DNA of 64,000 bases from Clostridiales bacterium (GTDB taxonomy: Bacteria; Bacillota; Clostridia; Oscillospirales; Oscillospiraceae): the NCBI GenBank assembly GCA_004556965.1, contig SFFE01000008.1, positions 10,077 through 74,076 of the forward strand, written 5' to 3'. This document shows, piece after piece, positions 35,428 through 42,491 of the stretch. A program made the position numbers and the translations under genes. Each line of letters starts with the position of its first letter. Position 1 is the first letter of the stretch. The notes under the pieces are model-generated. The model searched no databases and was not told the DNA's origin. It saw only the letters and a list, made by a program, of their open reading frames with translations.

Positions 35428-35472
35428 TGGAGCTGCTGGGCAGATTCGAACTGCCGACCTCATCCTTACCAA
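35428..35472 (-). repeat. 45-bp duplicate of the tRNA-Thr 3' half (anticodon loop to CCA); distal att site of the island
   Basis: Identical to 42416-42460. Sequences diverge immediately outside both copies. Confidence 0.9.
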
Positions 35473-35596
35473 TTCTTGCCCCGCCTTTTTTTGCTTGTCG
35501 TATCTTGACGCAGTTTAACACAGATTTTCGTTGATATTACAGTGTTTCCAGGCTGCACGACTGTTTTGCTTTTCGTATCTTGTCACAGCTTGTTAT

Positions 35597-35639
35597 GTAG
35601 TGGTTTTTCGTGTATGTAGTGGTTTTTGTAGTGGTTTTT
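35597..35639 (+). repeat. three direct copies of GTAGTGGTTTTT (candidate integrase arm-type sites, left arm)
   Basis: Copies at 35597-35608, 35616-35627 and 35628-35639. Two more lie at the other island end. Confidence 0.6.
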
Positions 35640-35641
35640 CT

Positions 35642-35868
35642 GGAGCGGCTCACAGACGCACCAGGGCGCGCAGCCGCTCCAGGATCGCGCAGGCCGCCAG
35701 GGCGCAGCCAGAGGCCAGCAGGGTCTCACATGCTGCCGGAGCGGCTCACAGGCGCACCAGGGCGCGCAGCAGCCGCTCCAGGATCACACAGGCCGCCAGG
35801 GCGCAGCCGGAGGCCAGCAGCGTCTCACATGCTGCCGGAGCGGCTCACAGGCGAACCAGGGCGCTCCC
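35642..35868 (+). repeat. tandem repeat array A (family 1: 96 + 99 bp units plus a partial unit)
   Basis: Units start with GGAGCGGCTCACAG at 35642, 35738 and 35837. Each contains GGAGCGGCT...AGCCGCTCC inverted 9-mers. Confidence 0.9.
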
Positions 35869-35900
35869 TGCTGCTATCGGCAGAGAGCGCCCTGTTTTTA
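35857..35900 (+). terminator. hairpin plus T-run closing array A
   Basis: AGGGCGCTC...GAGCGCCCT stem followed by GTTTTTA. Confidence 0.6.
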
Positions 35901-37094
35901 TCATGCCTGTTTTTCTTTCAAAGCCTCCCGGAATACCTCACCCGCGCGCTTTATGCTTTCTTGGTCTGCATGTGTGTACATGCGCAGCGTTACGGCCTTG
36001 TCACTATGCCCCAGCGCCTCCGATACAGATGCAATGTCAGCGCCGTTTGTGATCGCTACAGAGGCGAAAGAATGACGCAGCTTGTGCGGGTGCATACCCT
36101 GCACGCCGTAGCGCTCACCAAACTTGGAAAAGTAGCGCGTAGGGCTTTGCGGGTGCATAGGTTCATAGCTGCCCTGTTTAGTGAACACGTAAACGCTCAC
36201 CGCGCTTTCACTCTGCTGCTGTCTGTGCTGCCGGAGCAGGGGCAGCAGCGCTGCACTAAAATACACTGTGCGCTCCCTTCCGTTTTTGGGGGTATCAAGA
36301 TACACGCCCTTTTCCGGGGTGTAACACAGATTGCCTTTGATGGTAATGGAGCGGCTTTCCATGTCAATATCTTCCCAGCGCAGCGCGCAGCACTCGCCGC
36401 GCCGGATTCCTGTTTCAAGCAGCAGAGAAACATATAACCGCCATTGGAGCGGCTCACCCTCCAGGCATTGCAGGATATAGGAAAGTTCATCAGCCGTGAA
36501 AGCGTCAACCTCACCCCCGGTCTTTTCACCCTTGCGGGGCTTTGGGCGCTCGACCTTGTCCATTGGGTTGCGCGGGATCGCGTCATTTAGATACGCCATT
36601 TTGAAAAACGTTGACAGCAGCGAATAGTGTTTTATAACCGTAGCGTGTGCAAGTCCTTCCCTTTGCATGGAGAGCAGCAGCGCGGAAATATTCGCGGGTG
36701 TAATGTCCGGCATTTTCAGATCCCCTATAGCGGGGTAAATGCGGTTGTTTAGGCATTGCTGCCATACTGTGCGCGTGTTCTCGCTGATAGAAACGGCCTT
36801 TGACGGCATGAAAACGTTTTCCCCGTATTCCTTGAAGGTCTGCACCTTTGCGGCCTCGCGCAGCCGCTCCCGCGCCAATTCCTTTTTATCCTCGCGCCCC
36901 AGGGCAGCGCCTGCCTGCACTTGTCTTTCAAAGTCACGCGCAGCCTTGTTTAATTCGCGCTCGATTGTGCGCTTGCTCCAGCCATCAGCCGGATACCAGC
37001 GCTTGTAAACCTTGGATTTCCCGCGCCCCCGGCTCACGCCGATTTCATAAAACAGGACACCGGATTTAGTGTATTTTTCCCGGATTGATGCCAT
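35901..37094 (-). CDS. int: tyrosine site-specific integrase
   Basis: C-terminal catalytic R..HKLRHSFAS...LGH...Y motifs. GGAGG RBS before the ATG at 37094. Confidence 0.9.
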   Translation of the reverse strand: MASIREKYTKSGVLFYEIGVSRGRGKSKVYKRWYPADGWSKRTIERELNKAARDFERQVQAGAALGREDKKELARERLREAAKVQTFKEYGENVFMPSKAVSISENTRTVWQQCLNNRIYPAIGDLKMPDITPANISALLLSMQREGLAHATVIKHYSLLSTFFKMAYLNDAIPRNPMDKVERPKPRKGEKTGGEVDAFTADELSYILQCLEGEPLQWRLYVSLLLETGIRRGECCALRWEDIDMESRSITIKGNLCYTPEKGVYLDTPKNGRERTVYFSAALLPLLRQHRQQQSESAVSVYVFTKQGSYEPMHPQSPTRYFSKFGERYGVQGMHPHKLRHSFASVAITNGADIASVSEALGHSDKAVTLRMYTHADQESIKRAGEVFREALKEKQA

Positions 37095-37466
37095 ATATTG
37101 AGACCTCCAGAAAGAAAAGATAAAAAAGGGGTATTGACATCGGTCACGATTCAAGTATAATAGACGGCAAAGCAAGATGCAAGATATTTAATCACAATTG
37201 CAGACTTGCGGCGGGAGATTCCCGTACAATCAGAGCCGAGAGCCTTGAGGGCCGAGGGCCTATAATGTTACCACGTTATAGGTATGCCCTAAGGACAACA
37301 ACAAGAGCCAGTGCCTAAGTGCCAGAGCCTATAACGTTCATTGCGTGATAGGTGCAGCTAGGCCAGGCAATTATAAATCCGGCCAGCGCTCCAGCAGCCC
37401 GCGCCACGAACAAAAAACGCTTTGCGTAGTCGTGGTATGGTCGGCATATTGTGAGCGAGAGCCTTT

Positions 37467-37524
37467 GAGCGAGAGCCACTGACAACGCAATGCAGCGTGT
37501 TGTCAGTGGTTCTCGCTCTTTTTG
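37467..37524 (+). terminator. 20-bp-stem hairpin plus T5 immediately upstream of the xis-rep RBS (terminator/attenuator)
   Basis: GAGCGAGAGCCACTGACAAC / GTTGTCAGTGGTTCTCGCTC (one G-U position) followed by TTTTTG. Confidence 0.7.
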
Positions 37525-37557
37525 CGTTCAAACCACTTTGGGAAAGGAGAAATCCGC

Positions 37558-37758
37558 ATGAACAAAGCACCATTCCAGAAAATCACAGAGGCCAGCAAAA
37601 CAACTGGGCTTTCGCAGTCGTTCCTCCGCAAAGGCTGCAAGGCCGGGAGCGTGCCGCATATCGTGAGCGGCAACGTGTATTACATTGATGTGGAGCGGCT
37701 GCTTGAGCGGCTGCGCACGTCGCCGGAGGCGTTCAGCGCCGTGCAAGGGGGTAAATAA
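37558..37758 (+). CDS. xis: excisionase/MerR-like HTH DNA-binding protein
   Basis: 66 aa with HTH block ITEASKTTGLSQSFLRKGCKAG. AAAGGAG RBS. Stop overlaps the rep ATG. Confidence 0.65.
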   Translation: MNKAPFQKITEASKTTGLSQSFLRKGCKAGSVPHIVSGNVYYIDVERLLERLRTSPEAFSAVQGGK

Positions 37759-41319: not shown

Positions 41320-41595
41320 TTACGCCACGCAGAAGCGGCGCACAGTTGCCGTCTTGGTGAAGCGCTCGCACAGCTCCGGTGCTGCCTTGCGCAGAGCGGA
41401 AGCGTCGAGCCTGGTGCTGGTTACGAGCTTCCAGGTAACCTTGTAATCCTTCCCGGCCAGTTCATCGACGGCGGCAGCGCTCATGTACGCCTTAATAGCG
41501 TCCTGGATGGCTGCGATCTCTGCATTGAGTTCTTCGGCCATGCGGCGCAGCTCGCGCAGCTCGTTGACCTTGGCTTGCATTTCATTGTTGCTCAT
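41320..41595 (-). CDS. hypothetical coiled-coil protein common in Firmicutes mobile elements
   Basis: 91 aa with AGGAG RBS. N-terminal heptad-rich helix. Confidence 0.55.
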   Translation of the reverse strand: MSNNEMQAKVNELRELRRMAEELNAEIAAIQDAIKAYMSAAAVDELAGKDYKVTWKLVTSTRLDASALRKAAPELCERFTKTATVRRFCVA

Positions 41596-41731
41596 TGGTA
41601 TAGCTCCTTTCCTGTTCGGTGGGAGTGGCCCGTCTGGAATGTATAAGCTTCAAAGCATTCCCAATTCACCAGTATGTCTGGGCCGCTTGCCGGGGGTTTG
41701 TTCCCGCTCCCTTGATCTGTCTATATATTAC

Positions 41732-41787
41732 TATATCGGGGACGATATATCAATTCGCAGAATAAACAAATATATCGGGGGCAATAT
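41732..41787 (+). promoter_or_regulatory. two TATATCG-N4/5-(C)GATAT/AATAT palindromes upstream of the RHH gene (candidate operator)
   Basis: TATATCGGGGACGATATA at 41732-41749 and TATATCGGGGGCAATAT at 41771-41787. A TATAAT lies at about 41824. Confidence 0.45.
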
Positions 41788-41846
41788 GTGCAATGTGTAT
41801 ATTGTACCCAATATAGCATCGTGGTATAATCAATCGAGGTGATTAT

Positions 41847-42044
41847 ATGCCAGCGAGTAAAGCACAGCAGAAAGCAGTTGCTAAGTATATGGCTGCAAAC
41901 TATGATGAAATCAAGCTAAGAGTGAAAAAAGGAAAACGGGACGAAATCAAAGCCCACGCAGAGCAGCGCGGCGAAAGCGTCAACGCCTTTATAAACCGCG
42001 CCATTGATAGCCAGATGGAGCGCGACAACGAAAGCGCAGAATAG
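41847..42044 (+). CDS. Arc/CopG-type ribbon-helix-helix protein
   Basis: 65 aa. N-terminal beta-strand region, helices and a typical ESVNAFINRAI block. GAGGTG RBS. Confidence 0.65.
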   Translation: MPASKAQQKAVAKYMAANYDEIKLRVKKGKRDEIKAHAEQRGESVNAFINRAIDSQMERDNESAE

Positions 42045-42046
42045 CG

Positions 42047-42273
42047 CGCAGCCGCTCCAGGCGTGATATATTGCGGGGTGTTCTCTGCCGATAGCAGCAG
42101 GGAGCGCCCCGCTTTGCGTGTAGCAGCCGCTCCAGGATCGCGCAGGCCGCCAGGGCGCAGCCGGAGGCCAGCAGGGTCTCACATGCTGCCGGAGCGGCTC
42201 ACAGGGGCACCAGGGCGCGCGCAGCCGCTCCGGGATCACAGAGGCCGCCAGGGCGTGCAGCAGCCGCTCCAGG
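42047..42273 (+). repeat. repeat array E (family 1, about 1.5 units plus an inverted copy of the array-A hairpin sequence)
   Basis: GCAGCCGCTCCAGG motifs. 42083-42108 is the reverse complement of 35860-35885. Confidence 0.8.
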
Positions 42274-42325
42274 CATGAAAAAAGCCGGGGCGGCTTGAGC
42301 CGCTCCGGCGTGTTTTTGGGGGCAT

Positions 42326-42349
42326 GTAGTGGTTTTTGTAGTGGTTTTT
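42326..42349 (+). repeat. two direct copies of GTAGTGGTTTTT (right arm)
   Basis: Copies at 42326-42337 and 42338-42349, in the same orientation as the left-arm copies. Confidence 0.6.
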
Positions 42350-42415
42350 GTGCGGCGTGTCTTTCTGACAGAAAAAGTAAAAACCTCGAATCCGTTGAGA
42401 TTCAAGGCTTTTTTC

Positions 42416-42491
42416 TGGAGCTGCTGGGCAGATTCGAACTGCCGACCTCATCCTTACCAAGGATGCGCTCTACCGACTGAGCTACAGCAGC
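42416..42491 (-). tRNA. tRNA-Thr (anticodon GGU), intact, CCA encoded
   Basis: Cloverleaf read by eye: acceptor GCTGCTG/CAGCAGC, anticodon stem CATCC/GGATG, loop TTGGTAA, T-loop TTCGAAT. Confidence 0.9.

Follow-up and report, generated by a model that had tools for sequence, protein, structure and literature searches.

A 64,000-nt window of contig SFFE01000008.1, from an uncultured gut Oscillospiraceae bacterium, carries an island inserted in a tRNA-Thr(GGU) gene beside a complete prophage. (All coordinates below are positions in this window; L-numbered items are related contigs, and G-numbered items are genomes or records.) The island encodes a tyrosine integrase, an Xis-like protein and an HUH rolling-circle replication protein (Rep), and shares a short non-coding element with the packaging region of the prophage. 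From sequence comparisons we lean, at somewhat better than even chances, towards reading it as a minimal satellite of the neighbouring prophage of the cohesive-end (cos) type, one that would replicate by a rolling circle and be packaged as concatemers. This reading draws on the homology of the cos regions, the synteny of rep and a zinc-ribbon gene (KTR) with phage late modules, relatives in the same tRNA gene, and an attP-bearing scaffold of one such relative. It extends, rather than contradicts, the original prediction for this DNA, an Int-Xis-HUH-Rep island, which the sequence, domain searches and natural empty sites have borne out. The case is a compact one, with a candidate satellite and a candidate helper 360 bp apart in one genome and a shared packaging region narrowed to ~150 nt.

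A packaging-site candidate shared by island and prophage

By blastn, the island has two significant matches in total to the rest of the window, one of which joins island positions 40173-40281 to prophage positions 57261-57371 (76.8% over 112 nt, E 9e-15). With nhmmer, a profile whose alignment includes both sequences recovered the island (E 2.6e-57) and the prophage (E 2.6e-54) with no other match in the window; across ~85 related loci it otherwise gave only weak matches, in L037 and L038, at the same place 3' of rep. The two copies and the prophage genes around the second are as follows:

40120-40320 (+): island cos-like element, with a predicted cleavage region at ~40172-40182 (CGGCGGTGTTA)
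55862-56608 (+): prophage Rep paralogue, 36% identical to the island Rep
56668-56877 (+): prophage KTR zinc ribbon, 69 aa
56939-57217 (+): prophage HNH endonuclease (PF01844)
57208-57410 (+): putative prophage cos region, between HNH and terS
57528-57881 (+): prophage terS (Terminase_4, PF05119)

The prophage is a complete HK97-like temperate siphophage of 33,934 bp. Its early genes encode an integrase, a LexA-like repressor, DnaB, ParA/ParB and a methylase, and TerL, portal and capsid genes lie downstream of terS. In HNH-dependent cos phages, as known from HK97 and phi12, the cohesive-end site lies between HNH and terS.

The shared element is ~150-200 nt long and is kept in L029 and L032 despite Reps that are 74% and 51% identical, respectively, to that of the island. 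In 10 prophage variants from different samples, positions 57258-57395 are invariant and the flanks vary. As the co-resident Reps are only 36% identical, the element appears to track the packaging machine and not Rep. Its position can also be compared with the ends of a complete phage genome. The linear genome G328 (IMG/VR; 38,417 bp, CheckV 100%) is nearly identical to L112, and its two ends abut inside the HNH-terS gap of L112 with 11 nt missing. In a five-way alignment, these 11 nt correspond to the element's most conserved block, CGGCGGTGTTA at 40172-40182 in the island and TGGCGGTGTTA at 57260-57270 in the prophage, and this block is flanked by a poly-C box and a GAGGGGG box, both shared. 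Moreover, Logan contigs from four runs of one project (including L152 and L154) start exactly at 57282, within the invariant stretch and 11 nt to the right of the block, a position with no known polymorphism among the prophage variants compared and one that may be a physical genome end. Both the ends of G328 and the contig starts are as expected from physical genome ends, short of proof. Taking homology, gene position and these ends together, we think it likely that the shared element is cos. Exact-pattern scans for the cos core gave no match in the viral, genome and metagenome collections. The island is without structural or terminase genes and carries a putative packaging signal, the cos-like element, that matches its candidate helper; these are the general marks of a satellite.

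Alternatively, the island could be a satellite or phage-derived island in which the shared 110-150 nt are the Rep nick site or origin, or a late-promoter or activator site that senses the helper, with packaging by some other signal. The element does lie 0.2-1.7 kb downstream of rep in every family member, Rep adjoins the same gap in phages, and the element contains short inverted repeats (CCCGCG...CGCGGG and a poly-C/poly-G pair). However, an origin would have to stay 75-83% identical across Reps that are 36-51% identical, and both termini of G328, a complete linear genome, map within the element. A promoter role is unlikely, because the satellites have no conserved plus-strand gene 3' of it: the element is followed by an array in the island, by KTR in L029 and, in L032 and L038, by genes on the minus strand. 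We regard this alternative as decidedly improbable and retain cos as the preferred assignment.

The candidate helper occupies its own attachment site. A 48-bp repeat of the tRNA-Pro 3' end is found at 42821-42868 and at 76755-76802, the latter beyond the window on the same contig (C20). The original prediction had placed the prophage next to tRNA-Pro and 460 bp from the island; the tRNA is right, but the prophage is integrated inside the 3' 48 nt of the gene, and the gap, from the right island repeat end at 42460 to the prophage repeat at 42821, is 360 bp. The second blastn match (island 40958-41018, prophage 44238-44300) contains a stretch of 33 identical bp, just downstream of island ORF96 (40961-40993) and just upstream of the prophage integrase gene (44241-44273), which has two copies only in the genome. 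In L178, homology to the window prophage ends at 44265, inside the region of this stretch, which looks like a mosaic joint common to island and prophage. A search of INPHARED for close relatives of helper or island gave no DNA match to the HNH-terS region, and its matches to the island were short and weak.

The Rep-KTR module and a proposed satellite cycle

Seven open reading frames (ORFs) had been named in the island, and ORF calls and domain searches recovered all of them, with the integrase start codon taken from gene calls on identical contigs:

35901-37094 (-): tyrosine integrase, 397 aa (PF00589, E 8e-34; phrog_1, E 1.5e-67)
37558-37758 (+): Xis-like helix-turn-helix protein, 66 aa (HTH_17, weak, E 0.009)
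37758-38504 (+): HUH rolling-circle Rep, 248 aa (PF23343, E 1.6e-15; phrog_3584, E 1.7e-47)
39158-39631 (+): KTR protein, 157 aa, with a C-terminal Cys_rich_KTR zinc ribbon (PF14205, E 8.7e-6)
41017-41307 (-): ORF96, 96 aa, no family match; 88% conserved in L029
41320-41595 (-): ORF of 91 aa (phrog_1956, phrog_6244 and the C-terminal part of phrog_434)
41847-42044 (+): ribbon-helix-helix (RHH; Arc/CopG-like) protein, 65 aa (phrog_13890, E 7e-18; Arc-like phrog_582)

The Rep has motif I, the HUH motif and the catalytic tyrosine motif that define an HUH Rep, and these (TLTYD, HHH(M/V)VIN and Y169-LTKE) are invariant in a 20-sequence alignment (A3). The Xis-like protein is kept at 94% in L029, 72% in L032 and 50% in L038, and its gene always lies directly 5' of rep. 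KTR is ~30% identical to its prophage counterpart (56668-56877). The 91-aa ORF (41320-41595), with faint hints of Mu-Gam or Gp157 likeness, is conserved at 99% in L029 and 55% in L032. From its family matches, the RHH protein is likely a repressor or copy-control protein, and a homologue has a weak RepB-RCR_reg match on record. None of the seven ORFs matched a capsid or terminase family in Pfam, PHROG or PADLOC searches, PADLOC gave no significant match to defence genes, and no capsid-resizing gene was found in the island.

The order of these genes recalls that of phage late modules. We recovered 80 viral contigs with a Rep protein alignment and scored them with the window proteins. In ~60 of the phage contigs, the great majority, Rep-KTR-(HNH)-(terS)-terL is the standing order (IMG/VR loci within L039-L115), with KTR ~130 nt after Rep and HNH, terS and terL within 1.5-3.5 kb; Flavonifractor phage Cormatin (L034) has the same Rep-KTR-HNH-terS-terL order. 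The island has Rep-KTR-cos, without HNH or terminase. We also observed that phages with Rep-KTR in the late module own a separate DnaB-type replication module.

In the Rep tree, a single clade (100/99), nested within the phage Reps, holds all those encoded beside int and xis. It comprises the window island, L029/L030, L031, L032/L033 and L036-L038, and the Rep of the co-resident prophage falls elsewhere. Because there is one such clade and the prophage Rep lies outside it, the tree indicates that the satellite lineage is old and of single origin, not a recent copy from the co-resident prophage. Of 301 genomes of the host family, 45 contain the Rep family, with identity never above 42%, and from this low identity we take these genomic Reps to be prophage copies.

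Members of the family share the insertion site as well as the Rep. Integrated members lie in tRNA-Thr(GGU), L029 and L032 have the same 3' half of tRNA-Thr as attP or att core, and relatives in this site or targeting it measure 4.1-6.5 kb. The smallest, L038, occupies 4,140 bp in tRNA-Thr and carries int, xis and Rep, a KTR-like zinc-ribbon ORF of 60 aa, an RHH gene, the same arm repeats and a weak cos-like match; tandem arrays are absent from it. In L029, a 6,509-bp metagenome scaffold whose Rep is 74% identical to the island's, the tRNA-Thr 3' half has element DNA on both sides and the 5' half is absent. This arrangement is that of an intact attP, so what was assembled from the metagenome is an excised, circular or multimeric form. 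L032 was considered as a further proof of a circle, and is uninformative: its 15-nt end overlap is expected when a k=31 unitig breaks inside the 45-bp repeat. As a separate observation, the attP cassette is flipped relative to rep in both L029 and L032; in L029, the int-attP segment is inverted, the cos-like element lies 5' of KTR, and each module joint, like both scaffold ends, bears 88-89-nt arrays. Such arrays may be places of module exchange.

We propose the following cycle. Helper induction would lead to expression of the xis-rep operon, which is preceded by a consensus promoter and then a strong terminator, and Int and Xis would excise a circle. The HUH Rep would nick a putative origin, for which the cos-like element and the octamer-rich arrays are candidates, and drive rolling-circle replication to head-to-tail concatemers. 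The helper's HNH-TerS-TerL machinery would then recognise and cut the cos-like site at 40120-40320, and a multimer would be packaged into normal helper capsids. As genes for capsid, terminase and capsid resizing are all missing from the island, it would be wholly phage-dependent for particles. As a matter of arithmetic only, five island units make 34,940 bp, or 1.03 times the helper genome (33,934 bp), and four make 0.82 times. A lambda-like packaging window spans 78-105% of genome length. We considered whether the arrays tune the island's length to it and give this little weight, as any element below ~8 kb has some multiple in the 78-105% window.

Phage satellites shape gene flow and phage resistance, and the families studied in depth are those of staphylococci, enterobacteria and vibrios; to our knowledge, very little is known of satellites in the strictly anaerobic Clostridia that dominate the gut. 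Full-text literature searches for the Pfam families and for HUH-Rep satellites returned no description of such a satellite family. Among known systems, cos-type Staphylococcus aureus pathogenicity islands (SaPIs) carry a copy of the helper cos site (PMC5052747), and PICMIs (minimalist chromosomal islands inducible by phages) and VEIMEs (integrative mobile elements encapsidated in virions), without capsid genes, are packaged as helper-genome-length concatemers (PMC10803314, PMC9618062). Like PICMIs, the island is very small, with an integrase, an excision regulator and one replication protein and without capsid or resizing genes (PMC10803314); helper-length concatemers in normal capsids are, for the island, a proposal. 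PICMIs are integrated next to fis, have int, AlpA and primase genes, and belong to Vibrionaceae and virulent phages of Gram-negative bacteria (PMC10803314), whereas the island has a tRNA-Thr site, an HUH Rep, an Oscillospiraceae host, a cos-like copy from a temperate helper and tandem repeats over about one fifth of its length. It falls outside the PICMIs as defined. VEIMEs are likewise small integrative elements without capsid genes, with concatemers consistent with rolling-circle replication and, in some, plasmid-like replication genes (PMC9618062). They come from marine hosts and are defined by concatemers seen in virions, whereas the island is known from genome sequence.

With the cos SaPIs SaPIbov4 and SaPIbov5 (PMC5052747), the island shares a chromosomal location, a helper cos copy and a predicted reliance on helper HNH and terminase, and its candidate helper resembles theirs in being an HK97-like cos phage with HNH next to terS. 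The cos SaPIs are ~14 kb long, however, and have a primase-type replicon, an Stl-type repressor and Ccm, a capsid homologue that yields small capsids for a monomer, all of which the island is without (PMC5052747). Having an HUH Rep alone in place of a primase-helicase (pri-rep) replicon and its neighbouring iteron ori, and no divergent Stl-like repressor by int, it stands outside the SaPIs and the wider class of phage-inducible chromosomal islands (PICIs), and Pfam and PHROG searches found none of their terS or morphogenesis genes (cpm, ccm, ppi) in it. A different kinship is that with Clostridia siphophages (Cormatin and the Clostridium phages phiS63 and phiSM101), whose Reps belong to the same family, phrog_3584/PF23343; Cormatin and most of the IMG/VR contigs also have the Rep-KTR order 5' of the packaging site, as in the island. 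These are full tailed phages, whereas the Reps of the satellites make up a separate clade and accompany int-xis, not HNH-terS-terL. By analogy, the island probably operates in the manner of a PICMI or VEIME and, as regards its use of the helper cos, of a cos SaPI, but from different genes. If this is true, one more replication strategy, based on an HUH Rep out of the late module of the helper itself, joins the designs of minimal satellites. It would also pose the question of why genes for an HUH Rep and a KTR protein are retained immediately upstream of HNH-terS in dozens of cos siphophages.

Several points weigh against reading the island as a satellite of this prophage. The cos assignment rests on homology, gene position and contig ends, and a Rep origin or a late regulatory site could co-locate with the element; the contig starts at 57282 could come from graph branching by unseen variants, and the 11 nt missing between the ends of G328 could have been lost by accident during assembly. 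This copy of the island lacks a master repressor of the Stl type known from SaPIs, and no helper-encoded inducer was identified. Prophage-only strains exist, and the ten conspecific contigs described below include no island-only strain, a sample too small to speak of dependence; the samples in which island and prophage co-occur are several from one study and possibly represent one strain. Excision, replication and packaging of the island itself are predicted from sequence, and HUH Reps also serve plasmids and mobilizable elements.

This last point leads to another view of the island, as a phage-independent integrative rolling-circle plasmid or integrative mobilizable element. It would be excised by Int and Xis and would either replicate as a plasmid through Rep and the CopG-like RHH protein or use Rep as a relaxase through a conjugative pore supplied in trans, and the similarity to the prophage gap would reflect no more than shared ancestry of the Rep-associated module. 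An HUH Rep and a small RHH regulator are a classic rolling-circle plasmid pair, here with the weak RepB-RCR_reg record for a homologue, and a relaxase role is in principle open to an HUH Rep; L029 demonstrates a free circular or multimeric form, and no interference or capsid gene was found. Yet the phrog_3584 Rep occurs in tailed phages beside packaging genes. In PLSDB it is found only in six non-mobilizable Clostridium/Paraclostridium plasmids of ~34-40 kb, at a distant 27-29% identity. Pfam and PHROG searches of the island ORFs found no mob or coupling-protein family, and no oriT was recognised in the island. The conserved non-coding element, moreover, follows the helper packaging gap though the Reps are 36% identical. 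We consider a plasmid or mobilizable element unlikely, though worth keeping in mind beside the satellite reading.

Insertion into tRNA-Thr(GGU) and variation among strains

A tyrosine integrase put the element into the 3' 45 nt of tRNA-Thr(GGU), so that the tRNA was rebuilt and supplied with a terminator of the island's own. The island between the attachment (att) copies measures 6,943 bp, and the unit length is 6,988 bp. The features of the site are:

42416-42460 (-): proximal att copy, the 3' 45 nt of the intact tRNA-Thr(GGU) at 42416-42491, from the anticodon loop to the 3' end
35428-35472 (-): distal att copy, the orphan 3' 45 nt of tRNA-Thr, 5' half absent
35376-35412 (-): native tRNA terminator, a hairpin (AAAAGCCCCTGTAA...TTACAGGGGCTTTT) with a T-run, 3' of the left copy
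42379-42412 (-): island-borne terminator for the rebuilt tRNA

The two copies, 35428-35472 and 42416-42460, are identical at 45 of 45 positions (repeat family D17, 100%), and a contig-wide check found no third. ARAGORN calls tRNA-Thr(GGT) at 42416-42491 (-), with an Rfam score of 73.4 bits, and no tRNA at 35428-35472; as the repeat is exact and both programs call the tRNA, the right copy is the last 45 nt of an intact gene. All of this agrees with the original prediction, which had described a perfect 45-bp repeat equal to tRNA-Thr from the anticodon loop on, a right copy that completes an intact tRNA, and a left copy that is an orphan 3' half beside the native terminator. The hairpin and T-run are indeed in place, and the left copy is the tRNA's own 3' end in L180, a contig with an empty site. 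The hairpin of the island-borne terminator is also found 3' of the att core in L029 and L032.

We found ten conspecific contigs, one of them the window's own, through an exact match to the encoded flanking 271-aa protein (34146-34961). In L180, window positions 34146-35472 are joined to 42416-45633 with a 45-nt overlap at 100% identity, so that the island site is empty and the prophage retained. This is exactly the junction that had been set beforehand as a test, 35427 joined to 42461 around a single 45-bp copy, and the accompanying comparison with strains that lack the island came out the same way, with flanks 100% identical, one 45-bp copy and no leftover duplication. Island and prophage are both absent from seven of the ten contigs, which run to 35472, then through 42416-42868, and then from 76755 onward, giving exact empty sites for the prophage too; L178 is without the island and has a variant prophage. 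Natural strains carry both elements, the phage only, or neither, and the island is present or absent between otherwise identical strains. It has, in short, every mark of a tRNA-targeting tyrosine-integrase island: a 3'-tRNA repeat with an intact tRNA at one end, an internal, terminal integrase gene, and presence/absence polymorphism.

In principle the island could have lost its mobility and be inert, what is left of a decayed prophage or a dead island. Its small size, the repeat arrays that make up about one fifth of it and the lack of a repressor gene beside int in this copy fit such a view. Against it, the att copies are identical throughout, the seven ORFs are open with the HUH and tyrosine motifs intact, and presence differs between strains with 100% identical flanks; copies 96-100% identical occur in many samples, in two orientations, and the relative L029 has an intact attP. 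We give inertness very little credence, and hold it nearly certain, at the least, that the island is a functional or recently functional integrative element.

Several smaller observations concern the site and its copies. In copies 97% identical to the island (L159 1174-3654; L160), the body is inverted so that int adjoins the intact tRNA, with the joint at a short inverted TTTTTATCATGCCTG block; inversion by recombination appears to affect either the attP segment or the island body. L157 and L158 have 295 bp (three units) fewer in array C (39668-40071), either a true copy-number variation or an assembly collapse. At 35149-35162, most conspecific contigs hold an extra 428 bp with a MaoC-dehydratase-like gene, intact or split; this segment is absent from the window, L174, L176 and L180, with a 14-nt overlap at the joint. 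G016, the nearest species genome, was uninformative for comparison of the site, as its contig ends inside tRNA-Thr and its flank differs. The same tRNA-Thr(GGU) site in genome G024, of another family of the same order, holds a different 6.3-kb island (L023 3811-10191) with 45-47-bp repeats, a related integrase, an XRE repressor, an Xis-like gene and a RelB/YafQ-like pair, without an HUH Rep. The site and the integrase type serve several kinds of small island.

Control region, arms and repeat arrays

The remaining features of the island are non-coding:

37134-37516 (+): control region, with a consensus promoter (TTGACA-16-TATAAT) at 37134-37161 and then a 20-bp-stem terminator at 37469-37516, just before xis
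35597-35639 (+): left arm, three GTAGTGGTTTTT repeats (TRF period 12), candidate arm-type integrase sites
42326-42349: right arm, two GTAGTGGTTTTT repeats
35847-35892 and 42076-42121: left and right copies of a 46-nt sub-terminal inverted repeat (I1), 87% complementary
35642-35864: tandem array A, 99-nt unit x 2.3, non-coding
38801-39137: degenerate array B, partial 98-nt-type units
39668-40071: tandem array C, 98-nt unit x 4.1
40385-40897: tandem array D, 89-nt unit x 5.8
42120-42293: tandem array E, 98-nt unit x 1.8

Between int and xis (37095-37557) we found no ORF, and the interval holds the promoter, palindromes and terminator only. Near-consensus promoters lie 5' of xis in L029, L032 and L038, and L032 carries an XRE repressor next to int. 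Read-through of the terminator or derepression upon helper induction is a plausible switch for xis-rep. The 12-mer GTAGTGGTTTTT has five copies at the island ends and one elsewhere in the 2.19-Mb genome, and the arm repeats are kept at both ends of L032 and L038. The left sub-terminal inverted repeat (35847-35892) doubles as a hairpin 3' of int.

The tandem arrays amount to ~1.3-1.65 kb, or 19-24% of the island, and occupy nearly all gaps between modules. Within the whole genome they are confined to the island. The array D unit (88-89 nt) occupies five or six gaps in L029, where the module order differs. The octamer GAGCGGCT/AGCCGCTC (either strand) occurs 47 times in the island, at 6.8 per kb, a ~45-fold enrichment over the 0.15 per kb of the genome, and the prophage has two copies in 34 kb. 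In L032 and L038, relatives without arrays, no other 8-mer is as frequent, which makes it a family-wide site. The arrays and GAGCGGCT are candidate binding sites for Rep or another protein, candidate joints for module recombination, or candidate protection for linear DNA.

Combining these data, we offer three linked proposals, tentatively, since we would not expect all of them to hold at once. The island would be the founding member of a family, as yet undescribed, of 4-7-kb satellites in gut Oscillospiraceae. This family would have arisen once, by capture of the phage Rep-KTR-cos late-module entry onto a tRNA-Thr-specific int-xis cassette, with rolling-circle replication through the HUH Rep and multimers packaged by the HNH-terminase of cos helpers. 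The GC-rich intergenic arrays around the family-specific GAGCGGCT would be both protein-binding arrays and joints at which modules, including the attP cassette, shuffle or invert.

Other roles for the repeats were tried and set aside. The arrays are not structured RNAs, as folding of both strands was no better than shuffled (z 0.04 and -0.70), and Rfam matched only tRNAs and nothing in the arrays. Nor are they coding: neither the 98-nt nor the 89-nt unit is divisible by three, and long ORFs across the arrays change frame. A genome-wide repeat family was rejected on their restriction to the island, and a 20-mer gave chance matches only in the genome and viral collections. In the host genome, 71% of GAGCGGCT copies lie on the G-rich strand (168:68); a role as the host Chi site is a weak idea only, as the octamer is not among the most skewed 8-mers. 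Finally, TTGCGCAA-type palindromes and GAGCGGCT are candidate binding sites for the RHH and KTR proteins.

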